Shown one piece after another: positions 1,151 to 19,186 of a stretch of 40,374 bases of DNA; within the stretch, counting starts at the first letter, position 1, and each line of letters starts with the position of its first letter. Origin of the DNA: a virus; the IMG/VR virus record IMGVR_UViG_3300049795_000021, positions 1 through 40,374 of that record. One strand, given 5' to 3'. A program made the translations under genes and the position numbers. The notes beneath the pieces were generated by a model. The model ran no database searches, had not been told where the DNA came from, and saw only the letters and a list, made by a program, of their open reading frames with translations.

Positions 1151-2430
1151 GCGTCGCGATCCTTGAGCACACTGCGACCGAGGATTTGCGCGCCTTCCTC
1201 GGGGACGAATACGCCGATCCAGACGATTTCGCGTCCCAGGAGCACGAGCAGTTCTATGACTCGCACCACGCCGAACTCGTGGCATCGGGTTGGATGGGCG
1301 CCGGCAAGAGCCGCGTGTTGACCGAGAAGGCATGGAACGTGGCACGGTCGTATCCCGGCGTGACGGTGGCCCTGTTCCGCAAGGCGCAGAACTCGATCGC
1401 CCACACCACGGAGCGGACGTTCGAGCGGGACGTGCTCGACCGTAGATATCTCGCCAAGCGCAACAAGACCGAGCACTTCTGGGAGCTGACGAACGGCAGC
1501 CGGATCTACTTCCTCGGCCTCGACCCCGACCCGATCACGGGCGTTCCGTCGAAGGTCGGCTCGATGGACCTCGGCTGGGCCGGCGTCGACGAGGCGGTGG
1601 AGCTGACCGAGGAAGACTGGATCATGCTCCTCGGCCGGCTTCGGGATCCGCGGATGCCATGGCACCAGTTGGCCGCTGCGACCAACCCCGGACCGCCAAA
1701 GCACTGGCTTCGGATGCGGATGCTGGCCTCGCAGGACCGCCTGATGCTCGCGATCCGGGCCAACAAGTTCCTGACCCCCGAGTACGTGGCGATGCTGGCC
1801 AACCTGCCGGACACCGCCGCAGGGCGGAGACTCGGCAGAGGTGAATGGGCCGCCGCCGAAGGGGTCATCTGGACGCTGCCCGATACCCAGGTCCGCGACG
1901 AAGCGGGGCCGTGGAAGACGGTAGAGGCGGGGCTGGACTGGGGCTTCGTCCACGCCTTCGCCTGCGAGGTGCTGGGGCTGTCAGGGTCCGGTCGGCTGGC
2001 CGTGATCGACGAGGTCTGGGAACAGGGTCTGACCATCGATCAGATCATCCCCGTCCTCGAAGTCGTCCGCCACAAGCACGGCATCACCCGCTTTTGGGCC
2101 GACCCCTCGGAGCCCGGCTACATCCTCCAATGCCAGCGCGCGGGACTGCCCGTTGAGCCAGCCCACAACGCCGTATCGCCAGGCATCGACGCCGTGTCCA
2201 CGGCCATCGCCCGGGGGATGACGGTCGGCCCGGACTGTCGCGGCCTGCTCGGCGAGCTACCGGGCTACACGTGGGCGCCGAACCGGGCGGGCGGCTTCCA
2301 TGAGCGACCGATCGAGATCAACGACGACGCCTGCGACGCCCTCCGCTACGGCGTCGTGGGGATCACCCGAGCCTTGGAGGACAACCCGTGGGCGGCGCTG
2401 GCCGGTCAGCGGGTCGGAGGCGTGGCGTGA
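1147..2430 (+). CDS. terL: Terminase large subunit
   Basis: 427 aa. Walker A GWMGAGKS, Walker B LGWAGVDEA and coupling motif ATNP. Nuclease-domain acidic motifs GLDWGF, FWADPSEPG and NDDACDALRYG. Confidence 0.9.
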   Translation: MSVAILEHTATEDLRAFLGDEYADPDDFASQEHEQFYDSHHAELVASGWMGAGKSRVLTEKAWNVARSYPGVTVALFRKAQNSIAHTTERTFERDVLDRRYLAKRNKTEHFWELTNGSRIYFLGLDPDPITGVPSKVGSMDLGWAGVDEAVELTEEDWIMLLGRLRDPRMPWHQLAAATNPGPPKHWLRMRMLASQDRLMLAIRANKFLTPEYVAMLANLPDTAAGRRLGRGEWAAAEGVIWTLPDTQVRDEAGPWKTVEAGLDWGFVHAFACEVLGLSGSGRLAVIDEVWEQGLTIDQIIPVLEVVRHKHGITRFWADPSEPGYILQCQRAGLPVEPAHNAVSPGIDAVSTAIARGMTVGPDCRGLLGELPGYTWAPNRAGGFHERPIEINDDACDALRYGVVGITRALEDNPWAALAGQRVGGVA

Positions 2431-2708
2431 GTCACGTAGGCGAACATGTTCGGATCGTCAACGGTCCACAACTGGATGCGATGGAAGTGGACGCGATCTT
2501 CGCCGACCCGCCAATGGTGGCCCGACAGCCAACCGCGTCGAGTACGCCACCACCGCGCGGGTTCGTCATTGCACATCGCCGGTACGACTTGCTTGGCCGC
2601 CTCCGCATCGGTGAACAGGCCGTCGATGAATGTCTCAACGTTAGGCGATCCATCATCCAGCCATCGCGGTTCGTTGCGCGCCTCCGTCAGCGCCAGCCAT
2701 ATGTCCAT
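2406..2708 (-). CDS. Hypothetical Trp-rich protein. Downstream gene of the reverse-strand two-gene cassette.
   Basis: 100 aa. Its ATG (2708) abuts the stop of the upstream minus-strand gene (2709). The composition is not the R/A/G-rich kind seen in antisense artefact ORFs. The 3' end overlaps the terL stop convergently by 25 nt. Confidence 0.55.
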   Translation of the reverse strand: MDIWLALTEARNEPRWLDDGSPNVETFIDGLFTDAEAAKQVVPAMCNDEPARWWRTRRGWLSGHHWRVGEDRVHFHRIQLWTVDDPNMFAYVTHATPPTR

Positions 2709-2930
2709 CTACTTCCCCTTCTTCGGAGCGGGAGTGAACGGGCGGGAGTTGAACGGCGGACCAGTCGGACGGGCGAATATACCCAGTTCGTTTACCTCGA
2801 TCCGGCCCCCACTGACGCTATGTCCAGCAGGGGTCCATTGGCCAATGATGTGGCCATTCGCCGTGACGATCGTCAGCTTCGTGAGGGAGGCGTAGCGACG
2901 CCTGAACTTGGAACTCGGCATCTCATCCAT
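2709..2930 (-). CDS. Small protein with a Phd/YefM-like antitoxin N-terminal pattern (tentative)
   Basis: 73 aa from the ATG at 2930. Alternative starts are GTG 2936 and ATG 2921. The segment FRRRYASLTKLTIVTANGHIIGQW resembles the strand-helix-strand N-terminus of Phd/YefM antitoxins. Lys-rich tail PAPKKGK. A -10-like TACAAT lies 7 nt upstream of the ATG. Confidence 0.5.
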   Translation of the reverse strand: MDEMPSSKFRRRYASLTKLTIVTANGHIIGQWTPAGHSVSGGRIEVNELGIFARPTGPPFNSRPFTPAPKKGK

Positions 2931-2937
2931 GCACACG

Positions 2938-2947
2938 ATTGTACCAG
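2938..2947 (-). promoter_or_regulatory. Extended -10-like promoter element (CTGGTACAAT on the minus strand) for the reverse cassette. Predicts a leaderless transcript.
   Basis: The minus strand reads cTGgTACAAT-cgtgtgc-ATG. TACAAT fits TANNNT with a TGn extension. The 7-nt gap puts the transcription start at or near the A of ATG 2930. Confidence 0.4.
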
Positions 2948-2969
2948 CGCGTACAGCGGTGTACCAGCG
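2941..2969. repeat. Three direct GTAC(C)AGCG repeats phased at exactly 10 bp. Operator-like.
   Basis: GTACCAGCGC / GTACAGCGGT / GTACCAGCGT begin at 2941, 2951 and 2961. They lie in the 32-38 bp divergent gap between the reverse cassette and the + strand gene at 2969. Confidence 0.6.
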
Positions 2970-3118
2970 TGACCAACGCGATCACCCGCTACGCCGAAGC
3001 CGCCTACGCCTTGCTCGTGGCCGGCGCGGCGATGCTCTGGCCGCCGCTCGCCCTCGTCGTCGCGGCGGGCTACCTCGTGACCCTCGCGGTCATCGCTGAT
3101 CGGAGGACGCCGCCGTGA
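2969..3118 (+). CDS. Small hydrophobic (2-TM) protein
   Basis: GTG start. The 49-aa product is VTNAITRYAEAAYALLVAGAAMLWPPLALVVAAGYLVTLAVIADRRTPP. It fills the gap before the portal gene. Confidence 0.45.
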   Translation: MTNAITRYAEAAYALLVAGAAMLWPPLALVVAAGYLVTLAVIADRRTPP

Positions 3119-3197
3119 GCTACTTCCCTCGACGCACGAGATCCGGTGAGTGCGTCGGAGGAGAGGTCCGAACCGGACGGACGTTGGGAGGGATCGT

Positions 3198-5675
3198 ATG
3201 AGCATCGCGATCCCTCCCAAGCTCGCCGCGAAGGCCGGCCCCATCGGTCCCGGTAGCGGGCCGCTCCTGACTGAGTTCCCGCTGTCCGCCTACGCCAAGC
3301 CCAGCGCCCAGAAGAAGATGCAGAAGGCGTGGGCGCTGTCGTTCGAGGTGCCGTGGATCGCTGCAGCGGAGGATGCGATCACCGAACGGTTCGCGGGGGT
3401 CGAGTGGCACCTCGAAGACGAGAACGACGACGCCATCGACGACGCCTATCCGAACCAGGATGCGCAACTGGCGCGGACGCTAATCGAGAAGCCCGCGGCC
3501 AACCTGCCGGTGGGCGCGGCGTTCTACCGCTCCGACCTGTGGGCGCTCACGGCCCGGGCGATGGGCATCTGCGGCTCGTCGTTCATCTTCCTCGACCAGC
3601 CGGAACGGGTCGCCCGGACGCCGGCCGCGATGCTTCCGATCGCACCGTGGCGGATGAGCCCGAATGAGGACTCGCAGGGCAACCTCCTGACCTGGCAGAT
3701 CGACAAGACGCAGACGAGCCCCGGCATCGAAGTCTCGCTAGAGCAGATCCTCCATTACAAGCTCCGTCCCAACTTCGCCGGCCACTTCGGGGTCGGGCTC
3801 GTCGAAAGCGCGCTGCGCAAGGCCCAGATCACGACGGGCCTCGACGACCACATCGGGCTCGTGCTGTCCGGTGGCGGACGCTTGTCGGGCATCCTCTCGC
3901 CGAAGACCGGCATCGTTGGCGGAGATGAGATCCTCCAGATGGAGCGCGACTGGCGGACGATTGTCGAGCAGAGCGATGCCGCCAAGCGGTTGCAGCTCGT
4001 GCGGGCGCCGATCCAGTTCGACCGGACCACGCTCACGCCCGACGAGCTGAAGATCCGCGATCTCATGGTCGGCTCGCGGGACGACCTGCTGGCGCTGTGG
4101 GGCGTTCCGCTGTCGATCATTGGCGGCTCGACTCCCGCAGGGCTGAACTCAGGTGACACCCGCAAGTACGACGAGGCGGCGATCTGGCAGGGGCCGATCC
4201 ACCACCGACTCAACGTTTTCCGCGAGATCACGCAGTACCAGCTTCTCGACCGCTGGCGCGACCTCGGTGTCACGATCGAGCTGGAGATCGACGAACCGGA
4301 GTTTGACGACGACTCGCCGCGCTACGACCTCCTCGGCAAGTCCGTCAACGTTGCCCTGACGGACGATGAGCGTCGAGCACTGATCGGCAAGGAACCCCTG
4401 CCGAACGGCCTCGGGCTGATGGTCCGGCTGCCGGCAACGATCGTCGAGTCGTTCGCCGTGCCGTCGGTCGACGAAACCCCGTCGATCACCACGACGGTCC
4501 TCGGTCGGGCGGCGCAGCAGCAGCTCACGTCGGGCGATTCGGCGATGCTCGCGGCCGGCGAGACGAAAGCTGCCCTCCATCCCCGCGTCCAGCCGTTGCA
4601 CCAGGCGCTCATCCGCATCCGCAACCACATGGCATCGAAGGTCACCCCGCGGCTGCAGTCGTCCGTGGCGCAAGTGCTCACCGACCAGCGCCACGACATC
4701 GCCGCCCGACTCCGGGAGCACGCGGATCACGTCACGAAGAACCCCCGCGACACGAGCACATGGTTCGACAAAGGCTGGGACGCCAAGCTCCACAAGGCGT
4801 TGGTGCCGCACCTCACGGTCATGGCCGAGGCGGTCGTGGCGCAGGTTCACGACGTTCTGCCGGCCAAGCCGCACAAGGCCGGTCCTGTAGGGGCGGTCGA
4901 GCGGACCCTCAATCGTGGCGCGGCTCGGGTGACCGGGATCAACGAGACGACACGGGCGAAGATCCAGGAGGCCATCATCCGCGGGCTGGAGGACGGGTTG
5001 TCAGTTCTCGACGTGGCGGACCTGATCGAGGAATCGGGGACGGTCGGCGGTCTGGAGATGGGCGCGCTGTTCGACGAGTACCGCGCCGAGATGATCGCCC
5101 GGACCGAGCTGATGGACGCCTACAACGGCGCGGCCATCGGCAGCTACTCCGACGCCGGGATCACGCAGGTCGAGGCGATCGACGGCGACGGGGATGAGGA
5201 GTGCGCCGCGCGCGATGGGCAGACGTTCGGCATCGACGAGGCGGACGCCATCGAAGATCACCCGAACGGAACCTTGGATTGGGTGCCCGTGATCGGGGAG
5301 GAGGTCGCTATCGAAGGCAAGGCGGCCGTATCTGCACCCGTTCCCGTCACCACGCCCCAGAACTTCAACTTCAACTTCCCGGAGGGCATGGTCCGCGTCG
5401 AGCACCACGCCGGCGATGTCCACGTGGCCGCAGCGGAACCACAGATCATCCCGCCGGCGCAGATCGATGTCCACGTCCCCGACCAGCCGGCGCCGATCGT
5501 GAACACCGTGGTCAACGTTCCCGAAACGCCTGCGCCCATCGTCAACGTGGCCGGCGACACGCACATCGTCAACGTCCCGGAACCGTCCGTGACGGTGGTC
5601 GACGTCAAGCCAACCCGCAAGGTCATCGACCGCGATCGGACGGGCACGATCACCGGCATTCACGAGGAGAACTGA
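3198..5675 (+). CDS. Portal protein fused to a MuF / SPP1 gp7-like minor head protein domain
   Basis: ATG 3198 is preceded by GGGAGGG. 825 aa. Located downstream of terL. The C-terminal third carries MuF-like motifs (EMIARTELMDAYNGAAIG, DEECAARDGQTF, HPNGTLDW). A Pro/Val-rich repeat tail follows (VPDQPAPIVN, VPETPAPIVN, VPEPSVTVV). Confidence 0.75.
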   Translation: MSIAIPPKLAAKAGPIGPGSGPLLTEFPLSAYAKPSAQKKMQKAWALSFEVPWIAAAEDAITERFAGVEWHLEDENDDAIDDAYPNQDAQLARTLIEKPAANLPVGAAFYRSDLWALTARAMGICGSSFIFLDQPERVARTPAAMLPIAPWRMSPNEDSQGNLLTWQIDKTQTSPGIEVSLEQILHYKLRPNFAGHFGVGLVESALRKAQITTGLDDHIGLVLSGGGRLSGILSPKTGIVGGDEILQMERDWRTIVEQSDAAKRLQLVRAPIQFDRTTLTPDELKIRDLMVGSRDDLLALWGVPLSIIGGSTPAGLNSGDTRKYDEAAIWQGPIHHRLNVFREITQYQLLDRWRDLGVTIELEIDEPEFDDDSPRYDLLGKSVNVALTDDERRALIGKEPLPNGLGLMVRLPATIVESFAVPSVDETPSITTTVLGRAAQQQLTSGDSAMLAAGETKAALHPRVQPLHQALIRIRNHMASKVTPRLQSSVAQVLTDQRHDIAARLREHADHVTKNPRDTSTWFDKGWDAKLHKALVPHLTVMAEAVVAQVHDVLPAKPHKAGPVGAVERTLNRGAARVTGINETTRAKIQEAIIRGLEDGLSVLDVADLIEESGTVGGLEMGALFDEYRAEMIARTELMDAYNGAAIGSYSDAGITQVEAIDGDGDEECAARDGQTFGIDEADAIEDHPNGTLDWVPVIGEEVAIEGKAAVSAPVPVTTPQNFNFNFPEGMVRVEHHAGDVHVAAAEPQIIPPAQIDVHVPDQPAPIVNTVVNVPETPAPIVNVAGDTHIVNVPEPSVTVVDVKPTRKVIDRDRTGTITGIHEEN

Positions 5676-6625
5676 TGGACGATCTGCTCATGGCTCCGCG
5701 TGGCGATGTCGAGGTTCGGACGACGTCGCTCGTACCCGATGGCGCCCGCCCCGGTCTCCGTGAGCTGTGCGACGACCCGCGGGCGTTCACTCGTCCGATC
5801 CTGATTCGCGGGATCTGGCGCGATGCCGCCTTCGGAATGCAGCGGCGGGTCTGGCGTGAGCGTGTCCAGACGCACAACCTCCAGCTGAACGTCGGGCGCG
5901 ACCAGCAGAAGCGCATCGCGATGTTCGGCGACTTCGGAACCGCCCTCAATACCCTGGCGGCAGTGGGCACGGCGTCGGCCCCGACGGCCACGACATGGAC
6001 GGGCGCCGCGTCGTCGTTCCCGACCGCGACATCCGCCGCAGGCAATGCCGGCCTGCAGGGCAAGCTCGCTTTCATCGCCAATGCGATCTCCGCAGCGGCG
6101 TTCACGAACCCGGTCGTCGGGGTCATCCTGTCGAACACGGCCACTGTCCTGACGGTCGACCAGTGGTACGCCGTCCCGGTCACCGGCGCGGCAGGCACGA
6201 CGCCGGCCACAAACAGCGCATGCCTGATCCTGCCCGGCGGTGGGCCGATGTGGTTCTGCGCCCTGTCCACGAGCACCGCCGCAGCTGTGGCGAGCGACGT
6301 CACCCGCACGGCCGACGGACTGTGGGCCGATGGCACCGGTGGTGGCACGACGACTGAGCAGACGGCCAACGGCCTCGCCCGCGCGTACGTCGGTCATGGC
6401 AGCGCGACGCCGCCGACGATCTCCGGCGCGAACAACTACACCTACGGCCACACGTGGACGTACACCGGCGCGTCGACGGTCACGATCGGCAAGGTCGTCC
6501 TGTTCAACTCGCTCGCCTTCGCCGGCACCATCCCGATGCTCGAGACGCTCCTCAACGCGAATGCCTCGGTCGCAGCCAACGGCGACACGATCGTCCTGTC
6601 GTCCTGGTCGGTCACGGTGAACTGA
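5675..6625 (+). CDS. Hypothetical Ala/Thr/Gly-rich protein. First gene of the portal-protease insertion.
   Basis: The ATG overlaps the portal stop (TGATG). 316 aa. No recognisable motif. The longer ORF starting at 5201 overlaps the portal gene and is rejected. Confidence 0.6.
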   Translation: MDDLLMAPRGDVEVRTTSLVPDGARPGLRELCDDPRAFTRPILIRGIWRDAAFGMQRRVWRERVQTHNLQLNVGRDQQKRIAMFGDFGTALNTLAAVGTASAPTATTWTGAASSFPTATSAAGNAGLQGKLAFIANAISAAAFTNPVVGVILSNTATVLTVDQWYAVPVTGAAGTTPATNSACLILPGGGPMWFCALSTSTAAAVASDVTRTADGLWADGTGGGTTTEQTANGLARAYVGHGSATPPTISGANNYTYGHTWTYTGASTVTIGKVVLFNSLAFAGTIPMLETLLNANASVAANGDTIVLSSWSVTVN

Positions 6626-6627
6626 CG

Positions 6628-7089
6628 ATGGCTGCTGTCTTCACCGTCAACTCGGGCAAGGTCGCCGCTGCGTCGGCGGCGCTGAAGGTGGCCGTCCAGC
6701 TTGCCTCCACCGCCAACAAGACCTGCAAGATCATCGCGGTGGATTTCACCTTCGACGGGACGGATGCGACGAAGACGCCGATCCTCTGCGAGATGGTTCG
6801 CGAAACGGGCGTAAGTGCAACCGGCGGCACGGCCCCGACCCCGGTTCTGGCCGGCGGCGATGCGTCCGTCACCAGCGCGATGACCGCTCGGATCAACGAC
6901 ACCGCAGATGGCTCGGGGCCAACGGTGATCTGCGGCTGGCTTGTCTCGCCCACGTCGGGCTTCTCCTACCAGTGGCCGCTCGGGCGCGAGATCACCCTCA
7001 AGATCAGCGACTTCGTGGCGGCGCGGGTGACGACGGTGGCGGGGTCGGGTACGCCGAACTACGACGTCACCGTCTGGTACGAGGAGTGA
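6628..7089 (+). CDS. Hypothetical beta-rich protein
   Basis: ATG lies 2 nt after the upstream stop. 153 aa. High GC3. No recognised motif. Confidence 0.6.
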   Translation: MAAVFTVNSGKVAAASAALKVAVQLASTANKTCKIIAVDFTFDGTDATKTPILCEMVRETGVSATGGTAPTPVLAGGDASVTSAMTARINDTADGSGPTVICGWLVSPTSGFSYQWPLGREITLKISDFVAARVTTVAGSGTPNYDVTVWYEE

Positions 7090-8468
7090 GGCGTGCTGCT
7101 GTTCTCGCAGTCGTTCTCGCTTGGCTCCTGGTCGCGCCTGTCGATGCCAATCCGCCGCCCTGTCACGGCCAGATTTGTCCGCCGCCGGGGCCGGTAGCGA
7201 TGGGGCGCTTGAAAACGGCTGGTGCCGAGAGTCTCGACGTCAACGGGCTCGGGATCGAGGGGTTCGCGGCGAGCGCAGCCGGCGCGACTATCTCCACGCT
7301 CGTTCAGCGAACGGGATTGGCGTCATTCAAGGTGACCAATAACAGTAATGGAAACAACGGCGTCTGGAGTGGCCTGAGCACGGACGCCAATGTACTTGCC
7401 AGGTCCTATTTCTTTCGGATGTACTTCAGGATCGAAGTAGCTCCCTCCAGTGTCGAGACGATCTTCTCCACCGAGGATTTGCAGAACGCGGGCTTCAACC
7501 TCCAGCTCGGAACGGACCAAACCATCCAGTTGCGCGGCACCACGACTACGATCGGGAGTCCAAGCGCCGCGCTCGCTCTCAATACGTGGTACCGGGTCGA
7601 GGTATCCTGGAAGATCGGCTCTGGCTCGCTGGATGACAGCGTCGAATTTCGTCTCGATGGCGCGACGATCGCCTCCTCCACCAATGGGACGTGGTTCACG
7701 GTAGCCGCTGGACTTGTCGCGTTCGGAGCAATAAAGACGACGTCGACGGGCAGTATCTATTACTTCGACGACGTCGCTCTCAACGATGACCAAGGAGCCA
7801 GTCAGAACTCATGGCCCGGCGCCGGCAGCGTCGCCCTTCTTCTGCCGATCAGCGACAGCGCCGTGGGTGCAGGCTGGACGCTCGGCACTGGCACGGCCAT
7901 TAGCGCCAACGGTTTCGGCTCTGTCGATAACACACCACCAACGGGCGTTGCCGACCTCGCTGCGGGCTCCGATCCCAAACAGATCCGCAATGCCAGCGCG
8001 AACGCCAACACGAACTACGACGCGAACCTGACGACATATTTCAACGCGGGCATCGGGCCGAACAGTGTCGTCAATGTCCTCGTGCCCATCGTCGCAACGG
8101 CAGCGCCGGTGACGACGTCCTCCAAACAGGGCACCGTCGGCATCGTGAGCAACCCAACCATCGCCAATATCGCTTTGGGAGCAGGTGGCACCGCGGGCGC
8201 GTTCTGGTCCGGCGCGGCGGGAGCGGGGTATGCGACAGGTTGGAAGGTCTCGTTCGGGACCACAACGTACGCCCCGGCCGTCACCGTCACCACGTCTCCG
8301 GTCATGCGGATCACCCAGGTGACATCTTCCACCCGCATCGCGGTCGTCTGCTTCATGGGCATGTACGTCGACTACACGCCCGGCGGCAACCTGCCCGGAA
8401 CGGGCTTCGGCAAGACGAGCCAGGTGCGCGGTATCCGGGCCACGATCGCCCGATCGGACTTCTGGTAG
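7086..8468 (+). CDS. LamG / concanavalin-A-like lectin-fold protein with a signal-peptide-like N-terminus
   Basis: GTG 7086 overlaps the upstream stop (GTGA). The N-terminus is (M)RRAAVLAVVLAWLLVAPVDA followed by NPPPCHGQICPPPGP. The LamG-like core includes FFRMYFRIEV, NTWYRVEVSW, VEFRLDG and IYYFDDVALND. ATG 7200 is an alternative start. GC3 is visibly lower than in neighbouring genes. Confidence 0.65.
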   Translation: MRRAAVLAVVLAWLLVAPVDANPPPCHGQICPPPGPVAMGRLKTAGAESLDVNGLGIEGFAASAAGATISTLVQRTGLASFKVTNNSNGNNGVWSGLSTDANVLARSYFFRMYFRIEVAPSSVETIFSTEDLQNAGFNLQLGTDQTIQLRGTTTTIGSPSAALALNTWYRVEVSWKIGSGSLDDSVEFRLDGATIASSTNGTWFTVAAGLVAFGAIKTTSTGSIYYFDDVALNDDQGASQNSWPGAGSVALLLPISDSAVGAGWTLGTGTAISANGFGSVDNTPPTGVADLAAGSDPKQIRNASANANTNYDANLTTYFNAGIGPNSVVNVLVPIVATAAPVTTSSKQGTVGIVSNPTIANIALGAGGTAGAFWSGAAGAGYATGWKVSFGTTTYAPAVTVTTSPVMRITQVTSSTRIAVVCFMGMYVDYTPGGNLPGTGFGKTSQVRGIRATIARSDFW

Positions 8469-9575
8469 ATGGCACGCGCCGGACGCGCACAACCGATCCA
8501 CGTCAAGCCGCCCAAGCCACCGAAGGGCGGCGGGGCCAGCTTCACCGCGGTCGATAGCCTATCGGCTGAGTCGGACCTGGCGACCAAGACGGCTGGTGCG
8601 CCATCACGTACCGGAGCCGACAGTCTGGCGGCCGTCTCCGAGGTTGTCACCCGCGCAGCAACGGCGCGCAGTCGCACGGGTACGGATTCGCTCACCGCGC
8701 TGACCGATGCCGCCACTCGCACCGGCTCCGCCGCATCACGCACCGGAACGGATGCGCTCGCGGCCCTGACGGATACGGCGACTCGATCGGCGGTGGCACG
8801 ATCCCGAACGGGACCCGACTCGCTCGCGGCTCTCTCCGATGCCGCCACGCGAGCGGGGCAGACGTCCTCCCGGACGACCGCAGATAGCCTATCGGCCGAG
8901 ACCGATGCGGCGACGCGGGCCGGAGCGAGCGCCAGCCGAACCGGTTCCGATGCATTGAGCGCAGCAAGCGATGCCGCGACACGGGCCGCCGCGAGCTCGA
9001 CGAGGACGGGCACGGATGCGCTTGGCGCTCTCACGGATGCCGCTTCCCGCTCCGCTTCGGCCGCCAGTCGGACCAGCAGCGATGCTCTGACCGCCCTGAC
9101 AGATGCGGCGACCCGAGGCACATCGAACGCCCGGACCGGCTCAGACACTCTCGTAGCGTCGGCCGACATCGCGACGCGGGCCACGGCGACCAACACACGG
9201 AGCGCCTCGGACAGCCTCGCCGCTCTCGTCGATGTCGCGATGGGGGATGTCAGCGACCTCCGCACCGCCGCCGATGTCCTCGTATCGCTGGCAGACGTTG
9301 CCAGCCGATCTGCCGCTGCGACATCGCGGACGGCTGCTGATGCGCTGGACGCCTCAAGCGACATCGCAACATCGTTCGCCTCGGCGTCGCGAACCGCCAG
9401 CGATGTGCTCATTGCGTCCACGGATATCGCCCAGGCTGTCGGCATCGCGCAGGTCGTCGCGTCGGTCGGCGGAGGTGGACGCAACCGACGCCGGCACTTC
9501 ATCCCGGTCATTCCGATTATCCCCATTCAGATCGAGGACGAGGACCTGATCCTCCTCCTCTTGGAGGCTGCGTGA
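8469..9575 (+). CDS. Ser/Thr/Ala-rich protein built from about 14 tandem 22-aa repeats, with a hydrophobic-acidic C-terminus
   Basis: The ATG immediately follows the upstream TAG, and the stop overlaps the next start. The repeat unit is like SRTGTDSLTALTDAATRTGSAA. The C-terminus is RNRRRHFIPVIPIIPIQIEDEDLILLLLEAA. Confidence 0.7.
   Translation: MARAGRAQPIHVKPPKPPKGGGASFTAVDSLSAESDLATKTAGAPSRTGADSLAAVSEVVTRAATARSRTGTDSLTALTDAATRTGSAASRTGTDALAALTDTATRSAVARSRTGPDSLAALSDAATRAGQTSSRTTADSLSAETDAATRAGASASRTGSDALSAASDAATRAAASSTRTGTDALGALTDAASRSASAASRTSSDALTALTDAATRGTSNARTGSDTLVASADIATRATATNTRSASDSLAALVDVAMGDVSDLRTAADVLVSLADVASRSAAATSRTAADALDASSDIATSFASASRTASDVLIASTDIAQAVGIAQVVASVGGGGRNRRRHFIPVIPIIPIQIEDEDLILLLLEAA
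8538..9452 (+). repeat. About 14 diverged tandem repeats of 66 nt (some 63 nt), in-frame and coding
   Basis: Amino acids 24-328 of the 8469..9575 product parse into units that all keep the G-x-D-x-L ... D-x-A-[TS]-R register. Confidence 0.8.
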
Positions 9576-10651
9576 TGGCAGAAGGAACCATCGGCGGGAC
9601 ACCGATCAGCGAGCTTCCCGCGTCGTCGTTCGCGTACTGCGAAGCAGGATCCGAGGCCGTTTCGACGCGCTGCCACTTCCCGATCCGTGACAAATCGGGC
9701 AAGGCCGACGCGGCGCACGTCCGGAATGCGCTTGCACGGCTGTCCGGGTCGCCCTTCGAGGCCAAGGCTCGCCCGAAGGTCGAGGCGGCGGCGAAGGAAA
9801 TCGGCATCGGGCAACCCGGCGCGCAGAAGGCCGAGCCGATGACGACGAGCCAGCTCGACCGCTGGTTGTCCGGCAAGGTCCCGCGACGCATCCTCATGCT
9901 GCCGTTCGGCGGACCGCTGTCGGACGGCAAGGCTGGAGTGGACATCGACTACGAATACTTCGACGAGACAACGGACATCTACGGTCCGTTCCCGACCCTG
10001 CGCGCATCGCGTGAGCGCGTCGTCGACTGGCACCACGATGATGACGACGTGCCGTCACAGGTCGCCCGCAATGGCGATCCCAAACTGCTCTCAATGAAGG
10101 GCGCAATCCTCGGTCACCTCAATTTTGACGAGGACCCCGAGGCCGACGGCTATTGGGCCGACTGGTGGGCAAACGCCGGCGAGAAACGTCGTCGTCTGAT
10201 CGCCCTGCTCGACCGCAAAGGCGTGCCGATGTATGGCTCGACCCAGTCGGTCGCCAAGGCCCGCCTCCTGTGGCCGCCGGAGGCCGACGGACGGATCCCC
10301 GTCTGGCCGGTCATCCGCCACACGATCTCCACCAGTCCACAGAACACCTACGCCGTCGTGCCCGCCCTGAAGGCGACGCTTGCGGCCACCAACCTTGACG
10401 AGATCCCGGCCGAGGCGCTCAAGGCGCTGCTGGTCGGACTCGACGCGGATACGACGGAGCTTCTTCTCAGCTCGCCAGAGGCGGCGGTACGCGCTTCCGT
10501 CCTGGCCGGTGCAGAAGCGGTGAAGGCGGGTCGCGTTCTATCGAAGAAGAACATCGACGATCTGCAGGCGGCGATCGGGCTCCTATCGGACCTCCTGTCC
10601 AGGGGTGTCCTGCTGCCGGCTGCGGACACAGGAGACGAATTGACACCATGA
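9572..10651 (+). CDS. Prohead (capsid maturation) protease / scaffold-like protein (putative)
   Basis: 359 aa, directly upstream of and coupled to the major capsid gene. The N-terminal AAHVRNALARL motif is common in phage head-assembly proteins. The central region LMLPFGGPLSDGKAGVDIDYEYF ... VDWHHD ... YGSTQSV resembles actinophage maturation proteases. Confidence 0.5.
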   Translation: MMAEGTIGGTPISELPASSFAYCEAGSEAVSTRCHFPIRDKSGKADAAHVRNALARLSGSPFEAKARPKVEAAAKEIGIGQPGAQKAEPMTTSQLDRWLSGKVPRRILMLPFGGPLSDGKAGVDIDYEYFDETTDIYGPFPTLRASRERVVDWHHDDDDVPSQVARNGDPKLLSMKGAILGHLNFDEDPEADGYWADWWANAGEKRRRLIALLDRKGVPMYGSTQSVAKARLLWPPEADGRIPVWPVIRHTISTSPQNTYAVVPALKATLAATNLDEIPAEALKALLVGLDADTTELLLSSPEAAVRASVLAGAEAVKAGRVLSKKNIDDLQAAIGLLSDLLSRGVLLPAADTGDELTP

Positions 10652-12117
10652 GCGACGAAAAGGAGATCGGCGAGCAGATCGCCGAACTGACCGGCGAGCT
10701 TCGGAAGATCTCCGAACGCCGGACCGAGGCCCTCAAGGCTTCGACGGCTGACGGCGGGCGGGCTGCCGCAGCCGATGACGGAGCGAAGGACGTCAGCGCC
10801 CAACTGGTGGACCTGACGCGACAGGTTGCCGCCCTCCGCGGCGAGGACGACAAGAAGGCGTCGGACGCGGCGCGCAAGGCCGAGATCGAGGACGCCGTCA
10901 AGGCTGTCCTCAAGAACACCCGCAGCGCATCGCTGGCGGGCGCCATCGGCACCGGCTCGACGGGCGAGATCGACGACAGTCGCCTGATCCCGCAGGCCGC
11001 CACCCCGGCGCACCCGGCCCTCAAGGCACTGTTCCGCGATTACGTCGGCGGCGAGATCGTCAGCGGCTTCGTGGACAAGCTGTGGGGCACGCACGCGTCC
11101 GACTTCGCGATGGTCGGCCGCGGCAAGGCCAAGCTCGACGAGCTCGGCATGTTCTGGTCGGACCTTCCGCCCGAGAGCAAGGCCACCCTCGGCAACACCG
11201 GCGCGGCGGGTGGATACGTCCTGCCGAACAATCTTGTGGACACGGTCGTCAAGCCGTCCGTTCAGGAGGCTGTCTATCAGACGATCATCACCGTTCGCAA
11301 CGGCGTCAACGTCCGCGGCGTCGATCAGCCGTATCGCACCGGCGCGCCGACCCGGATGACGTTCCAGGCATGGGGCGTCGCGAAGGAGAACCTCGACGAG
11401 GCCTACGGGAGCTACTCGGCGGCCCTCGGCACGATGGCCCGCATCTACGATGTCGGCAAGCAATATCTCCGCTTCTCGCAGGGTGCGGCCGAGCAGGACG
11501 TCATGGACGAACTCGGCAAGGCCGCCATCCTCGGGGAGAACTTCTACATCCTCGCGGGCCTCGGTACGGGCACCGGTCCGTCCGGCGATCCGACGACGGG
11601 CGTCTACACCGCCCTCGCGGCGGCCGTGGCGGGCTACACCACCACGTTCACCGGATCGAGCTCCACGGTCGCCGGCTCCGCCGCGGCCGGTCTTGCCACG
11701 GCCTTCGGGGCGATGGCGACCCGTTCCCGGCGGCCCACGGCCGTCGTGACCGATGCCGTGACCTACTGGACGCTGTTCAGTCAGGGCTCGGACAACGCGG
11801 GCTTCTGGATGTCGGACCTGCTGGGCGCCGGGTTCCAGATCGGACCGGACAACTCCCTCCGCTGGAGGGGCGTGCCGATCCTGTACGACGCCAACTACAA
11901 CACCAACACCGGGACCACGAAGGGCGCGATCGCCGGCGACTGGCCGGCCCTCAAGCTCTATCGTGGCGCCGAGTTCCGGATCGACACCTCCGACCAGGCC
12001 GGCAGCCGCTGGGACAACAACCTCGTTGGGTTTAGGGGTGAGCAAGAGATCGGAATCAACGCCTCAACGGCCGTGTCGGTCGGGGCATTCCAGCGGATCA
12101 CCGGGCTGATCCCCTGA
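10648..12117 (+). CDS. Major capsid protein, HK97-fold type, with an N-terminal coiled-coil (delta/scaffold-like) domain
   Basis: 489 aa. Charged helical N-terminus (EIGEQIAELTGELRKISERRTEALKA). The C-terminal region is typical of HK97-like capsids (FRIDTSDQAGSRWDNNLVGFRGEQEIG). Position fits the head module. Confidence 0.8.
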   Translation: MSDEKEIGEQIAELTGELRKISERRTEALKASTADGGRAAAADDGAKDVSAQLVDLTRQVAALRGEDDKKASDAARKAEIEDAVKAVLKNTRSASLAGAIGTGSTGEIDDSRLIPQAATPAHPALKALFRDYVGGEIVSGFVDKLWGTHASDFAMVGRGKAKLDELGMFWSDLPPESKATLGNTGAAGGYVLPNNLVDTVVKPSVQEAVYQTIITVRNGVNVRGVDQPYRTGAPTRMTFQAWGVAKENLDEAYGSYSAALGTMARIYDVGKQYLRFSQGAAEQDVMDELGKAAILGENFYILAGLGTGTGPSGDPTTGVYTALAAAVAGYTTTFTGSSSTVAGSAAAGLATAFGAMATRSRRPTAVVTDAVTYWTLFSQGSDNAGFWMSDLLGAGFQIGPDNSLRWRGVPILYDANYNTNTGTTKGAIAGDWPALKLYRGAEFRIDTSDQAGSRWDNNLVGFRGEQEIGINASTAVSVGAFQRITGLIP

Positions 12118-12118
12118 T

Positions 12119-12742
12119 ATGAGCGTCTCCGCCGCTTTCCTGGTCAAGGACCCGCCGCTGGACCGGCTGGCGCTCCTCGTGGAGTACCTCCGGCCAATCG
12201 TGACGGAATTCGTCATCGTGGTCGATGACCGGACGGCGGCGGAGACGCTCGATCTGCTGTCCACCTGGCGGGGCGTGACCTGCGTCCCGTTCCGCTGGGT
12301 GGACGATTTCTCCGAGGCGCGGAACGCCGCGCTTCCCCATTGCTCGGGCGACTGGATCCTGCATCTCGACCCCGACGAGCTGCCCACGGCGGCGATGCTC
12401 GCGTTCATCGCGATGGTCGATGCCCAGCCACAGGAGGACGTCGACTGGCAGGGCTCGCGGTACATGGCCCCGCGGGGCTACCTGTTCTTCACGCAGAGCT
12501 ATTACGACGGCACACAGGCCTCCGAATGGGAGGAGCACTGGCACTGCCGGCTCTTCCGGAAGGGCTCGGTCTGGTACAAGCCGGTCCACGAGCAGGTCAT
12601 GCTCGAAGGGATGCCCGAGAGCCGGACTCGCGGCACGCCGCTGCTCCCGAAGGCACCCCGTTCGGCGTTCCTCATCCACTCGCGAATGAACGACGCGGCC
12701 AAGGATGAGCAGTACGCCGCGCTCAGCCTGGTGCCGGCGTGA
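12119..12742 (+). CDS. Glycosyltransferase family 2-like (GT-A fold)
   Basis: 207 aa. The start is 2 nt after the capsid stop. Motifs VIVVDDRT, DDFSEARNAAL and GDWILHLDPDE (DxD-type). Confidence 0.7.
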   Translation: MSVSAAFLVKDPPLDRLALLVEYLRPIVTEFVIVVDDRTAAETLDLLSTWRGVTCVPFRWVDDFSEARNAALPHCSGDWILHLDPDELPTAAMLAFIAMVDAQPQEDVDWQGSRYMAPRGYLFFTQSYYDGTQASEWEEHWHCRLFRKGSVWYKPVHEQVMLEGMPESRTRGTPLLPKAPRSAFLIHSRMNDAAKDEQYAALSLVPA

Positions 12743-13437
12743 AGTACCTCATCTGGTCCTACGATTATGACCACGCCTCGGCTGGCCCAAAGGCCCTTCA
12801 CCGTCTCTGCCACGAGTTGAACATGGCCGGGCAGGAGGCGTACGTCGGGCCGTGGACAACGAATCCAGACTGGATCACGCCCGTTCATGATGCTCCGTTG
12901 TCGGGCGACTGGACGGCCGTCTACCCCGAGATCGTCAGGGGCAACCCGTGGAATGCGCCGCATGTAGCGCGTTGGGTCCTGAATACGCCCGGCCTGCTCG
13001 GCGGCGACCCGACGTACGACGCGTCCGAGATCGTGTTTGCGTGGCACTCCGAGTTCCTGTCGGGCGTCCCGCTGCTCGAACTTCCGACGATCGAGACGGA
13101 CATCTACACCGACCGCCACGAGTCACGGTCGGGTGAGGCGTTCTACATCGGCAAGGGGTACGGGGAGTGGCCCGGCGCAGAGGTCATCACCCTTGCGATG
13201 CGCCGTGACCGCCACGCGCTGGCCGACTTGCTCAACCGCGTCACTCTGCTCCACACGTTCGACGACACGACCGCAATGATCCTGATCGCCGCGTTGTGCG
13301 GCTGTTCGGTCCATGTCGTGTCGAGCGGGGTGACGATCGACCCAGCGGGCGCGCGCGATGACTACTTCCGCCGCGCCGCCCGATCCGGTGAGCAGCTCGC
13401 CGGCTTCATTCAGGCGACGGACCTGGTGCCGGCGTGA
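12739..13437 (+). CDS. Hypothetical protein within the glycosyltransferase cassette. Possibly an uncharacterised transferase.
   Basis: GTGA overlap start. 232 aa. No canonical motif. It has the same LVPA C-terminus and 16-nt junction sequence as the upstream gene. Confidence 0.55.
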   Translation: MKYLIWSYDYDHASAGPKALHRLCHELNMAGQEAYVGPWTTNPDWITPVHDAPLSGDWTAVYPEIVRGNPWNAPHVARWVLNTPGLLGGDPTYDASEIVFAWHSEFLSGVPLLELPTIETDIYTDRHESRSGEAFYIGKGYGEWPGAEVITLAMRRDRHALADLLNRVTLLHTFDDTTAMILIAALCGCSVHVVSSGVTIDPAGARDDYFRRAARSGEQLAGFIQATDLVPA

Positions 13438-14090
13438 TCGCCGCCATCATCCCGACTCGCTACCACCCGCCCGAGTTGGACGTGCTGCTTGATGTGCTGC
13501 GAGGCGACGGAGTGCAACCGATCGTCCTCGGATCGGGGTTGTTCGATCACCAGATCTACCGGATGTGGAACGCGGGCAGCGACGCAACTAGCGCACGGAC
13601 CGTCGCCATCCTCAACGATGACATCACGCTCCTGCCCGGCTCGCTTCCGCTCATGGAGCGCATCTTGTGGTCGAACCCTCCGCCATTCGGTTGGGTCGCA
13701 CCCGAATGGCCGCAATTGGCGGTCGTCTACCCCGACATGACGGCCGAGTGGAGCCTGCCGGCGGAGCCCATGGTTCAGCGCACGACGGGGACGTGGGGGG
13801 GCGGCGGGATGACCGGCTTCTGCTTCATGTTCCGGACCGACCTCCTGCTTCCGCGCTTCGACGAGGGCTACCACTGGTGGTACGGCGACGACGCCTTCGA
13901 GTTGGGCGTCAGGGATGCCGGCTACGGCGTCGGGCGGGTCGTCGGGGTTCCGGTGCGTCACGAGCCGAACGGAACGGCCTCCCGTCATTGGGATGAGCTA
14001 CAACCGCTGATCGAGCAGGATCGCGCGCGCTGGGACGCCTCGTGGAACGCTCGCCATGCCGCTATCGCGCACCGGGAGCGGGGCGAATGA
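13434..14090 (+). CDS. Glycosyltransferase family 2-like (GT-A fold)
   Basis: GTGA overlap start. 218 aa. N-terminal IAAIIPTRY, VAILNDDI (DxD-like), and GGGMTGFCFMFR plus WWYGDDAFE, typical of GT2. Confidence 0.6.
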   Translation: MIAAIIPTRYHPPELDVLLDVLRGDGVQPIVLGSGLFDHQIYRMWNAGSDATSARTVAILNDDITLLPGSLPLMERILWSNPPPFGWVAPEWPQLAVVYPDMTAEWSLPAEPMVQRTTGTWGGGGMTGFCFMFRTDLLLPRFDEGYHWWYGDDAFELGVRDAGYGVGRVVGVPVRHEPNGTASRHWDELQPLIEQDRARWDASWNARHAAIAHRERGE

Positions 14091-15301
14091 CGCGGCTGCT
14101 GTTCCTCGGCGACCTGGCACGCACCGGGTTCGGGACGGTGACGATGGATCTCGGGCAGGCGTTGCTCGACCTCGGCATCGACGTCCGCTTCTGCTCGCTG
14201 TCCGAGACGCCGGGGGAGTTGCCGGAGCCGTTCGCCTCGCGGACGGCCCTGCTCGGCTCGCCGGGCGGATGGCTGGACGAGACCAACCCCGAAACGGTCG
14301 GTCGCCTCGAAGGGATGTTCCTAGGTTCGCTGTTCGAAGACGGCTGGACACCCGACATCGGGCTCGTCACGGGCGACATCGGCTCGCTCAAGATCAGCCC
14401 GGTCCTGCAGTTCATCCCCGAGGGCTTCCCGGTCCTCCACTACGTGCCGATCGAGGGGATCGGGCTCCCGCCGTCATGGGCCGCTGTCTGGCGCAAGGTG
14501 CAGCCGGTCGCCATGAGCCAGTTCGGCGCGGATGAGATCGCTAAGGTGACCGGCCATCGTCCTCCGGTTGTCTATCACGGCGTCGATCCGCTGTTCCACC
14601 CGGCCTCGGTCGAGTCCCCGATCCGGATCGACGGCAAGCGTCTTCGGGCGCGCGAGGCGTGTCGCAGGTTCTTCGGCGGCGATCCCGACGACATCTGGCT
14701 TCTCCGGACGGACCGCCATATGCCGCGCAAGGCGTACGGCTCGCTCCTCCGCTCGATCGCGCCGGTCCTCAGAGGACACCCGAACGTCAAGCTGATCCTC
14801 CACTGCCGGACGATGGACGGCGGCGGGGACATGCGTGACGAAATCAGCAAGTACGGAGTCCTGTCCCGCCAGATCGTCATGACCGGCTTCATGGACCCGC
14901 CGTTGGGAGGGTTGCAGCGCGAGGCGCTGGCGGCGCTCTACAACGCGGCCGACATCTATGTCTCGGTGTCGGCCGAGGGCTTCGGGTTGACGATCGCCGA
15001 GGCGTTGGCCTGCGGCGTTCCAGCGGTGGGAATGGACTACTCGTCGGTGCCCGAGGTCATCGGACCGGCCGGCGTGCTGGTTCCCATCGCGGGGCTCATC
15101 GACAACATCTACTCGTACTTCTGGGCGCGCGTTGACGAACCGAAATTCGGGCAGGCTGTCGAGGGCCTGATCCGCGATGTCGCCAAGCGGCGACTGCTCG
15201 GCGCGCAGGGCCCTCGTCACGTCGCCGCACACTTCTCTTGGCCGAATGCCGCCCGGCAGTTCGTCTCCCTCATTGAGCTTCGAAACGAGGTGGCGGCATG
15301 A
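14087..15301 (+). CDS. Glycosyltransferase family 4 / GT1-like (GT-B fold)
   Basis: ATGA overlap start. 404 aa. C-terminal E-x7-E signature region SVSAEGFGLTIAEALACGVPAVGMDYSSVPEVI. Confidence 0.8.
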   Translation: MTRLLFLGDLARTGFGTVTMDLGQALLDLGIDVRFCSLSETPGELPEPFASRTALLGSPGGWLDETNPETVGRLEGMFLGSLFEDGWTPDIGLVTGDIGSLKISPVLQFIPEGFPVLHYVPIEGIGLPPSWAAVWRKVQPVAMSQFGADEIAKVTGHRPPVVYHGVDPLFHPASVESPIRIDGKRLRAREACRRFFGGDPDDIWLLRTDRHMPRKAYGSLLRSIAPVLRGHPNVKLILHCRTMDGGGDMRDEISKYGVLSRQIVMTGFMDPPLGGLQREALAALYNAADIYVSVSAEGFGLTIAEALACGVPAVGMDYSSVPEVIGPAGVLVPIAGLIDNIYSYFWARVDEPKFGQAVEGLIRDVAKRRLLGAQGPRHVAAHFSWPNAARQFVSLIELRNEVAA

Positions 15302-19040: not shown

Positions 19041-19186
19041 CCTGGAGGGAGGCGTTTGCCACGCTCCAATTGGAGGCAGAGGAACGGATCGGACGCGCTC
19101 AGCGAGCGGCTGTTGAGAGCATCAACGCCGGGCAAGATGACGCCGCCGCTGCCATGCGTGCGGCGGCCGAGGCTGCCGGCGGATGA
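18549..19186 (+). CDS. Tail assembly chaperone, long (G-T-like) form made by -1 frameshifting at 18884-18890
   Basis: The -1 frame after the slip reads TPQETEGFALWADGRLDLSDPYVWIAHGLVGQAVLARCHGWQAIRGEGELTWREAFATLQLEAEERIGRAQRAAVESINAGQDDAAAAMRAAAEAAGG. It ends in an ATGA overlap with the tape measure start. This looks far more protein-like than the zero-frame tail. Confidence 0.7.
18884..18890 (+). promoter_or_regulatory. -1 programmed ribosomal frameshift slippery site C CCT TTA
   Basis: X XXY YYZ heptamer in phase with the 18549 frame (codons gtC CCT TTA). The -1 frame is open from 18836 to the TGA at 19184-19186. Confidence 0.75.

Follow-up and report, generated by a model that had tools for sequence, protein, structure and literature searches.

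The portal/protease junction in the viral DNA analysed here (IMG/VR record IMGVR_UViG_3300049795_000021; its whole stretch of 40,374 nucleotides is called the window) carries a real insertion of four genes, A to D, and we judge it somewhat better than an even chance that the product of this block is a virion fibre (adhesin) that is optional and passes horizontally between phages. At its core is the pair formed by gene A and the repeat gene D, which recurs beside head genes in many tailed-phage lineages, with B and C as facultative parts.

The four genes are co-directional on the + strand and start/stop-coupled, with the portal-MuF gene on one side and the putative protease/capsid pair on the other (Table 1). 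The ATG of gene A, which has GAGGAG upstream, overlaps the portal-MuF TGA, and the TGA of gene D overlaps the GTG/ATG of the following gene. In the spacer between B and C, no promoter or terminator signals above chance were found; together with the overlapping starts and stops, this suggests co-expression of A-D with the late genes. When genes were called independently on another assembly, A, B, C and D came out in the same order with products of 316, 153, 422 and 368 aa, so the block is not an assembly artefact, and the original prediction of four tightly coupled genes at this site was confirmed. The 460 aa first given to the C product is most likely too long. A start at ATG 7200 was adopted because three observations agree: alignments with C homologues begin at the first residue of the 422-aa form, with PHROG and Hiyaavirus matches beginning at residue 39 of the 460-aa form; GC3 is 0.63 for 7086-7199, a value atypical for coding sequence here, vs 0.77 across the rest of C; and the independent gene call gives the shorter form. 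Gene C is also the lowest-GC stretch of the window (0.62).

Table 1. Features of the insertion and of its flanking head genes (positions in the window)
Feature	Position	Strand	Description
Portal-MuF fusion gene	3150..5675	+	Upstream border of the insertion
Gene A	5675..6625	+	316 aa; conserved beta-rich leading member of the A...D pair
Gene B	6628..7089	+	153 aa; probable single jelly-roll; facultative, independently mobile
Spacer B/C	7090..7199	.	Alternative: C extended N-terminally by 38 codons, starting at GTG 7086
Gene C	7200..8468	+	422 aa; predicted N-terminal ConA-like (Cip1/PL20-type) domain and conserved C-terminal beta domain
Gene D	8469..9575	+	368 aa; repeat shaft
Putative prohead protease	9572..10651	+	Downstream border
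Major capsid protein	10648..12117	+	N-terminal extension of ~187 aa
GT2, two unknown genes, GT4	12119..15301	+	GT2, 12119-12742; GT4, 14042-15301

The portal-MuF product contains the Pfam domains Phage_portal (residues 70-412) and Phage_Mu_F (604-706) and matches the portal family phrog_2662 (E 6e-38). The HK97-type capsid protein matches Pfam Phage_capsid over residues 188-471 and phrog_10 (E 2e-19), and no Ser/Thr-rich tail was found on it. The protease is weakly assigned (to the head maturation protease family phrog_3017, E 2e-3; no sequence match in Pfam or the PDB); the gene adjoins the capsid gene in all relatives. Directly 3' of the capsid gene are glycosyltransferases (Glycos_transf_2, E 2.5e-8; Glyco_trans_1_4, E 1e-14; phrog_2170). 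The GT2-GT4 set is kept in relatives both with and without the insertion, which indicates that these enzymes are independent of the block and may have another target.

Relatives of the same capsid lineage differ at the portal/protease junction. In three of them (L051, L054 and L056), the protease homologue follows portal-MuF directly and the block is absent; L010 carries A...D there; and L053 and L055 have other fibre- or depolymerase-like cargo: one protein resembles the tail fibre of podophage LME-1 (E 1e-15), another is Gly-rich, and a third begins like a beta-helix enzyme. With the block missing from three relatives and different cargo present in two, the junction is a hot spot for cargo and the block a true insertion, and the proposal of an accessory module was borne out. 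The accompanying premise that head modules are normally contiguous was too strong, as the decoration genes for lambda gpD and SPP1 gp12 are located within head modules. Movement of the block as a four-gene unit, which the original prediction had raised, was not seen either: only A and D travel together, and B and C are exchanged separately. B shares 84% nucleotide identity with a gene of phage L003 over exactly the length of the ORF, the remainder of that phage being unrelated, so B is exchanged as a gene-sized module.

The A-D pair is widespread. A D-type repeat ORF lies downstream of A on the same strand in all 15 loci whose A homologue is at least 45% identical and in 9 of the 23 loci with more distant homologues, 24 loci in total, at distances from 48 nt to 5.2 kb. 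These loci range across 40-72% GC and include HK97-, gpE- and T4-type capsids; D homologues themselves occur with unrelated capsid types (Gp23, gpE). Among 142 genes neighbouring A(-D) in 28 loci were 8 portals, 8 capsid proteins and 6 S78 proteases, as well as glycosyltransferases, methyltransferases and sugar-nucleotide enzymes, and no tail family was found among the top 25 neighbour families. A is directly downstream of the capsid gene in many lineages, and in five further loci the capsid gene is the nearest large gene upstream of A; the order is MCP-GT-A-x-D in L012 and MCP-GT4-x-MTase-A...D in L006. That the pair stands beside capsid, portal and protease genes far more than beside tail genes fits a head-surface role. 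The suspected link with glycosyltransferases also held, in that the adjacency recurs in independent lineages carrying A...D, and the capsid-adjacent enzymes are a possible functional partner of the block. On the other side, some A...D pairs are found in contigs of jumbo-phage type, close to a gene for a tail sheath or a virion RNA polymerase. For A, B and D, no homologue was found in 50,697 cultured-phage genomes.

Gene A belongs to a family of at least 179 homologous metagenomic clusters, all unnamed, and has no match in Pfam, PHROGs, NCBIfam or cultured phages. Most homologues are 340-360 aa long, with ~40 extra N-terminal residues relative to gene A here. In its AlphaFold2 model (pLDDT 81), a domain of ~130 residues matches many small Caudovirales proteins in BFVD (probability 1.0, TMt 0.56-0.66, E ~1e-3), among them proteins annotated as 'tail-collar fibre' and 'tail fiber' and a Mycobacterium phage minor tail protein. 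A Foldseek search of the PDB with the model returned the whisker gp5 chains of Bas63 (9mt4 K/L/M; probability up to 0.93, TMt 0.65) and, also weakly, the Sf14 neck chain K (9c39 K) and GP4 Fiber-1 (8jou a); for a whisker fold, an N-terminal helix plus an incomplete beta-sandwich, these matches are weak (probability 0.6-0.93, E 0.05-0.6). The Foldseek PDB matches of A and B are in general weak (E >1e-3), and beta-sandwich likeness is common. We propose that A is a base or adaptor subunit of the fibre.

The D product consists of a short N-terminal segment, ~13 units of 22 aa (residues 23-330, nt 8535-9458) and a hydrophobic/acidic C-terminal tail ending in ...IPVIPIIPIQIEDEDLILLLLEAA. The 22-aa repeats noted originally are borne out by an identity autocorrelation of 0.44 at lag 22 and 0.38 at lag 44; no tandem repeat was found in gene D at the DNA level, so the repeats are old. 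Across the family, the consensus is xR[TS][AI]S[DE][ST][LIV]xA[PLI][ST]D[SA][VA]xR with a period of 21/22 and invariant Arg and Asp; Pro is frequent at one repeat position, which counts against a helix. The shaft is probably alpha-helical, judging from hydrophobicity periodicity, which peaks at 98-100 degrees in five homologues, and from sub-threshold Pfam matches of the repeat regions of homologues to helical repeat families. Homologues are 310 to 1514 aa long. A LamG domain is fused to the repeats in P0192, P0194 and L009, and other homologues are fused to other beta domains. The C-terminal tail is common to L010 and P0192, whose LamG-D fusion has the same ...LILLEAA C-terminus, and is confined to this capsid lineage.

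The beta-rich character first ascribed to B agrees with its model (AlphaFold2, pLDDT 93.8), which has 11 strands and no helix. In a comparison with the TNF/C1q-like trimeric jelly-roll heads of viral fibres, its best Foldseek match in the PDB is CD40L (E 3.3e-3, low TM-scores), and the others, including viral capsid jelly-rolls and the carbohydrate-binding domain of a cyanophage short tail fibre, are generic. B has 70 homologous clusters, and C has 2123 representative homologues. The family profile of C matches Cip1 (PDB 3zyp, E 6.4e-9; residues 26-196 vs 23-210 of 218) across the whole beta-sandwich core, which places the domain in the ConA-like superfamily (Cip1/PL20-type) and upholds the LamG/ConA-like prediction; the match to glucuronan lyase has E 0.04. 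Among 47 family members, 5 match Pfam Polysacc_lyase-like (PF21340) and 2 match Laminin_G, and the window's own C protein is below Pfam detection. C also matches phrog_14065 (E 4e-15) and the N-terminal part of a Hiyaavirus protein of 1100 aa, gp11/gp13. The N-terminal domain of C is predicted from sequence profiles to be a carbohydrate-binding or lyase-like ConA fold.

The block was also compared with known categories. Searches of Pfam, PHROGs and NCBIfam, with E cut-offs of up to 0.1-1, linked A-D to no scaffold or decoration family, C matching only families of unknown function, in line with the original reading; known decoration families (lambda gpD/SHP, T4 Hoc and Soc, Dec, beta-tulip, phrog) did not match either. 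D does not fit a scaffolding protein required across the capsid lineage, because L051, L054 and L056 keep portal, protease and capsid without D. Nor does the block have the position of tail fibre or receptor-binding protein genes downstream of the tape measure gene: it lies 9.6 kb upstream of that gene (19183-21366), and the A(-D) neighbours elsewhere are head genes.

Among described systems, the head fibre gp8.5 of phage phi29 is optional and head-module-encoded, and its short helical repeats form an elongated shaft with a separate particle-binding end. D resembles gp8.5 of this Bacillus phage (cited in PMC12796354) in its repeat-based helical periodicity, but its repeats are of 21/22 residues with invariant Arg/Asp, and it has no PDB sequence match. 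A further difference is that D has a conserved partner, A, encoded by a gene of its own, as are the lectin-fold parts. A second group comprises the collar-whisker assemblies of the head-tail junction: Bas63 gp5 whiskers on a collar 'rope', GP4 Fiber-1 with the fiber-tail-adaptor, T4 fibritin and XM1 gp40, of which the last two are helical coiled-coil whiskers. The whiskers of Bas63 assemble on a distinct, extended partner polypeptide (PMC12609058), a two-partner assembly that recalls the obligatory A-D pairing. Relative to the whiskers and collars of Bas63 and GP4, however, the structural matches are at E 0.05-0.6, A is three times the size of the whisker subunit, and no sequence relation was detected; Pfam and PHROGs revealed in the block no Ig-like collar protein bearing a rope that threads whisker dimers, and D looks like an amphipathic helical repeat in contrast to the beta-strand rope of the Bas63 collar. 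Hiyaavirus gp11 (Galactica) and gp13 (Hiyaa), members of phrog_14065, are related to C: their N-terminal 300 residues are homologous to it (31% identity, E 8e-15) and are followed by a degenerate ~20-aa repeat region, and the gene is flanked by those for the capsid protein and the head-to-tail adaptor, with a methyltransferase nearby. They differ in being single polypeptides rather than C plus D, their repeat motif is different, homology to D is not demonstrable, and the two preceding genes are unrelated to A or B. In Che8-type mycobacteriophages, virions are reportedly glycosylated by enzymes encoded in the structural operon by the capsid gene, the sugars reportedly being attached to extensions at the C-termini of the capsid protein and the tail tube protein. 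Mycobacteriophage virion glycosylation is echoed in PMC11256854. Glycosyltransferases likewise adjoin the capsid gene here and in many A...D loci, whereas the capsid protein of the window lacks a Ser/Thr-rich tail.

In the virion fibre that we favour, D would form an elongated, coiled-coil-like shaft anchored to the particle by its lineage-specific C-terminal tail, A would be the base or adaptor coupling the shaft to the particle, and B (a probable jelly-roll) and C (Cip1/polysaccharide-lyase-like) would be interchangeable glycan-recognising heads on it. We infer that such a fibre would be incorporated into the virion and would make reversible initial contact with a host surface polysaccharide. 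The recurrent linkage to glycosyltransferases suggests that it may be glycosylated, or may cooperate with virion glycosylation. The pairing of lectin-fold and repeat proteins contained in the original prediction stands, as the two are fused in relatives; its placement on the capsid is suggested by gene order only, which points to the head or head-tail junction rather than the tail tip. A repeat shaft with a ConA-fold or other carbohydrate-binding domain is common to head/neck and tail fibres, so modularity does not discriminate between these sites.

Placement on the tail is the alternative of most weight, if an unlikely one: A-D would be tail or side fibres (receptor-binding proteins) on the tail tip or tube, their genes merely lying within the head operon. 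It would accommodate the tail-protein matches of the A domain, the 'minor tail protein' annotation of the Hiyaavirus C homologues, the junction cargo of relatives resembling a podophage tail fibre and a beta-helix enzyme, and phage L007, in which B lies in the tail module beside a Laminin_G_3 protein, after the tape measure gene and before the holin gene. The window's tail-tip region beyond the tape measure gene is also short (679, 222, 93 and 336 aa). Against it stand the dominance of portal, capsid and protease genes around A(-D), the position of A directly after the capsid gene in many lineages, and the location of the Hiyaavirus homologue outside the tail tip cluster. A more far-reaching proposal, which we regard as quite improbable, is that the glycosylated capsid fibrils of giant viruses have a widespread but undescribed counterpart in tailed phages, formed by A...D. 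A would then be the capsid-bound base, D a coiled coil of hendecad/heptad repeats that would be O-glycosylated at the two D-[ST]-[ILVA] triplets conserved in each repeat, and B and C swappable lectin/lyase heads at the tip; the modifiers would be the recurrent adjoining glycosyltransferases, methyltransferases and sugar-nucleotide enzymes.

Less probable again is that the genes are non-structural cargo of the late transcript with a secreted or surface-acting product, for example a polysaccharide-degrading enzyme released at lysis or a surface modifier excluding superinfection. The lyase-like fold of C and the relatives that do without the block are compatible with this, as are the signal-peptide-like N-terminus that C would have if begun at GTG 7086 (RRAAVLAVVLAWLLVAPVDA) and the signal-like start of the gene after B in L003. 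However, ATG 7200 is where C begins in its homologues and in the independent gene calls, which leaves out the signal-like part, A, B and D lack a signal sequence, and LamG-shaft fusions and strict A-D pairing by capsid genes fit a particle component better. The least probable reading makes D, perhaps with A, an internal head protein, scaffolding-like or ejected, whose C-terminal tail would direct it to the procapsid. In favour, D has an elongated, probably helical form and its gene immediately precedes the protease and capsid genes, its hydrophobic/acidic tail is confined to this capsid lineage, and MuF-type proteins, such as the neighbouring gene product, are internal head proteins. Yet D is missing altogether from relatives that share the capsid and protease, an N-terminal extension is built into the capsid protein itself, and D homologues reach 1500 aa, are fused to LamG or other beta domains and accompany Gp23 and gpE capsids as well.

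Accessory head/neck fibres affect adsorption, host range, adherence to mucus or biofilm and immune recognition, and the few described come nearly all from cultured model phages. If the block encodes a virion fibre, the A-D pair would add a conserved base gene (at least 179 clusters) with a length-variable shaft, a pair absent from the 50,697 cultured-phage genomes yet widespread, and several large families of unknown function would gain names and testable roles. The portal/protease junction of one lineage is a slot exchanging alternative fibre or depolymerase cargo, and there may be a tie between virion fibres and phage-encoded glycosylation.

The genes A-D proved to be an insertion between the portal-MuF gene and the putative protease gene, as the original prediction held. 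Seven viral contigs of the same capsid lineage (48-65% identity) were compared, and in three of them (L051, L054 and L056) this junction is empty, with both genes adjacent. L010 carries A...D at the junction, and unrelated cargo occupies it in L053 (3.4 kb, 5644-8704) and L055 (4.2 kb, 2178-6395). The L053 cargo encodes a 546-aa protein similar to the tail fibre of Legionella podophage LME-1 (PDB 9efk, E 1.2e-15), a 343-aa Gly-rich protein and a 128-aa beta protein, and the L055 cargo encodes several small beta proteins and one protein whose start resembles right-handed beta-helix enzymes (AlgE epimerases, E 3e-6; pectate lyase). Judged from these gene contents, the site acts as a slot in which different fibre or polysaccharide-enzyme genes can replace one another. 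Both borders of the block are start/stop overlaps (TGATG at 5673-5677 and GTGATG at 9572-9577), and a scan of the block found no promoter- or terminator-like sites above chance, which together assign A-D to the late head operon. The same genes occur in a second independent assembly, called at 316, 153, 422, 368, 358 and 489 aa, ruling out an assembly chimera of this metagenomic phage contig (66.6% GC).

Gene layout in the window around the A-D block
Feature	Coordinates	Strand	Remarks
Large terminase	1147-2430	+	
Portal-MuF fusion	3150-5675	+	
A	5675-6625	+	316 aa
B	6628-7089	+	153 aa
C	7200-8468	+	422 aa; most likely start ATG 7200
D	8469-9575	+	368 aa
Putative prohead protease	9572-10651	+	phrog_3017 as sole match, E 2e-3
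HK97-type capsid protein	10648-12117	+	Pfam domain from residue 188
GT2, two genes of unknown function, GT4	12119-15301	+	
Tape measure	19183-21366	+	

The length of 460 aa previously given for C was not borne out. Alignments with homologues begin at residue 1 of the 422-aa form, the PHROG and Hiyaavirus matches do not start before residue 39 of the long form, and GC3 is 0.63 for 7086-7199 versus 0.77 for the remainder of the gene; with the independent gene call, this makes the tabulated ATG the most likely start, rather than GTG 7086. Read in frame with C, 7086-7199 would give RRAAVLAVVLAWLLVAPVDANPPPC..., a textbook signal-peptide-like stretch, which the homologues and gene calls indicate is not translated. 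In L003, an otherwise unrelated phage contig with a copy of B, the gene after B (6074-6808) also has a signal-like start, MKRAILAALLLTLAMVNPVSS. GC is high at the second codon position of the block, which also contains long antisense ORFs (e.g. 8372-9526, minus strand); a composition-based (GC3) gene caller chose the wrong (minus) strand for the block, which was corrected by homology and frame statistics. Public gene calls for L006 likewise place three genes on the wrong strand at a D-type locus (antisense 12360-13877, minus strand), and D-type genes are probably under-annotated in databases. The lowest-GC stretch of the whole window, 7001-8000, lies inside C (0.62 versus 0.67). GC3 is 0.73-0.77 in C and D and 0.86-0.89 in A, B, the portal and the capsid protein, a contrast that fits a more recent acquisition of C and D.

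Whether the block moves as a unit received a divided answer: A and D travel together, but B is exchanged alone and the intervening genes vary. Wherever the A homologue reached at least 45% identity (15 loci), a same-strand D-type ORF followed it at a distance of 48 nt to 5.2 kb, as was also the case in 9 of the 23 loci with a more distant A; A-D loci span 40-72% GC. Since A and D are adjacent in L009 and L020, they constitute the minimal unit. The place between them, taken by B and C in the window, is filled in L010 by a B-like gene of 266 aa, a methyltransferase-like gene and one of 242 aa, and in L008 by a glycosyltransferase; the similarity of the window to L010 also stops at the end of A. 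B shares 84% nucleotide identity with L003, ending exactly at the ORF ends, and in L007 it lies in a tail module ahead of a Laminin_G_3 protein; these boundaries and contexts point to its exchange independently of the other block genes. C and D act as one unit in relatives: the homologous protein P0192 combines LamG, D repeats and the same ...LILLEAA end, LamG is also fused to D repeats in P0194 and L009, and the 1100-aa Hiyaavirus gp11 (Galactica) and gp13 (Hiyaa) carry a C-like domain followed by ~20-aa repeats. A three-gene unit common to Hiyaavirus was rejected, as Galactica gp9/gp10 and A/B were unrelated by both BLASTP and hhalign. Also rejected was a 141-aa L003 protein (phrog_644, upstream of B) as a short A (hhalign probability <1%). 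Directly after its portal gene, L003 encodes a 153-aa collagen-like protein with a G-x-y repeat (4378-4839).

The anticipated 22-aa repeats of D were found in about 13 units. D homologues repeat with a period of 21 or 22; Arg at position 2, Asp/Glu at 6, Asp at 13 and Arg at 17 are nearly invariant, and hydrophobic positions recur every 3-4 residues. The D-type repeat regions of L012 and L019 gave sub-threshold matches to helical families (apolipoprotein, Nup49_C, Laminin_II, P10 and Mce4_CUP1). We interpret D as a helical shaft, elongated and coiled-coil-like; a beta-solenoid or beta-strand "rope" was plausible from the 7-residue sub-period, but a helix is favoured by the i/i+4 spacing of Arg and Asp and by a hydrophobicity spectrum that peaks, in five homologues, at 98-100 degrees per residue. 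The repeats show no repetition at the DNA level and are thus old and maintained by selection. The C-termini of D differ by lineage, as would be expected of an end docking on a particular particle.

The A family comprises at least 179 clusters, none of them named. Its AlphaFold2 model (pLDDT 81) is beta-rich with a single helix at residues 72-83, and a domain of ~130 residues resembles many uncharacterised 120-160-aa Caudovirales proteins in BFVD (prob 1.0, TMt 0.56-0.66, rmsd 2.6-2.9 Å), as well as BFVD proteins named tail-collar fibre or minor tail protein. The best high-probability PDB structure matches, at E values of only 0.03-0.6, were an Acinetobacter phage tailspike, GP4 Fiber I and the whisker chains of Bas63 and Sf14; the Bas63 whiskers form dimers, which an extended collar-protein segment threads together (PMC12609058). 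In the genome collection scanned for prophage hosts, A had only five distant matches, all on MAG contigs. B is confidently modelled as a single jelly-roll (pLDDT 93.8) with generic structural neighbours only. The C family is very large (2123 representatives); its profile resembles Cip1 in the ConA-fold core (E 6.4e-9) and has a weak similarity to glucuronan lyase, and some members match Pfam Polysacc_lyase-like or Laminin_G.

Pfam searches of the 142 proteins within 5 kb of the A-D pair at 28 non-redundant loci returned Phage_portal (8), Peptidase_S78 (6) and capsid families (6 HK97-type, 1 gpE-type, 1 Gp23-type) most often, and no tail family among the top 25. Lower in the list were Gly_rich_2, glycosyltransferases, methyltransferases and sugar-nucleotide enzymes (DegT, epimerase/dehydratase). 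The nearest large upstream gene is the capsid gene in L025, L035, L038, L039 and L040; the order is MCP-GT-A-x-D in L012 and Gp23-GT4-x-MTase-A...D, then DegT and acetyltransferase, in L006-type contigs. Exceptions are jumbo-phage-like contigs in which the pair lies close to a gene for a sheath or for a virion RNA polymerase. Beside A...D lie a DegT aminotransferase and an acetyltransferase in L006 (14291-16686) and an NAD-dependent epimerase/dehydratase in L034 (5343-6260), and such adjoining enzymes suggest phage-made unusual sugars. The proposed link of the block to glycosyltransferases holds in their recurrence near A-D loci, as a statistical association only; relatives without the block still keep the GT2/GT4 set. 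The 232-aa gene between the glycosyltransferases of the window is not homologous to the 232-aa gene of L006-type contigs, and their equation was rejected. The repeats of D (8535-9458) and its homologues contain two D-[ST]-[ILVA] triplets per repeat, the form of the O-glycosylation sequon described for Bacteroidetes; they are notable beside glycosyltransferase neighbours, and may be coincidental.

Further downstream, genes 15298-16179 and 16807-17442 have very high GC3 (0.88 and 0.93) and share ~60 N-terminal residues similar to the C-terminal part of phrog_20658 "head decoration" (E 5e-8 and 1e-6); they may encode paralogous abundant virion proteins, decoration or major tail. A 1073-aa ORF (20181-23402) runs into the tape measure ORF in a different frame; trimming leaves a 679-aa gene (21363-23402), the first tail-tip gene, without a PHROG match. 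After this region, a 222-aa protein (23399-24067) matches PHROGs of head decoration, tail fiber and virion structural protein (E to 3e-19), and is probably a shared surface-display domain.

No Pfam, PHROG or NCBIfam family was found for A, B or D, and tblastn detected no homologues of them in 50,697 cultured-phage genomes. Against cultured phages, the capsid protein (tblastn) and the block region (megablast) gave no match and the portal one weak MuF match. PDB sequence searches with single sequences of A, B, C, D and the protease gave no meaningful match, and a relationship of the protease to an S78_2 protease was rejected for lack of similarity.

Accessory fibres encoded in head modules are a known kind, as in phi29 gp8.5, T4 fibritin and the Bas63/GP4 whiskers. 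We found no description of the A, B and D families, of an obligatory core of two genes between which the inserts are exchangeable, or of its repeated association with glycosylation genes. On balance, we lean towards the block encoding a virion fibre that is optional and exchanged horizontally. From gene order, the head or head-tail junction is its more likely attachment site; a fibre located on the tail is a serious but distinctly less probable rival. That A-D are non-structural cargo is improbable, the signal-like extension being absent from C homologues, and an internal or scaffold role of D in the head is more doubtful still, because close relatives lack D and it is fused elsewhere to lectin domains. 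In the favoured virion fibre, D would form the shaft, A its conserved base or adaptor, and C and B swappable glycan-recognising heads, through which the phage would bind reversibly to host surface polysaccharide.
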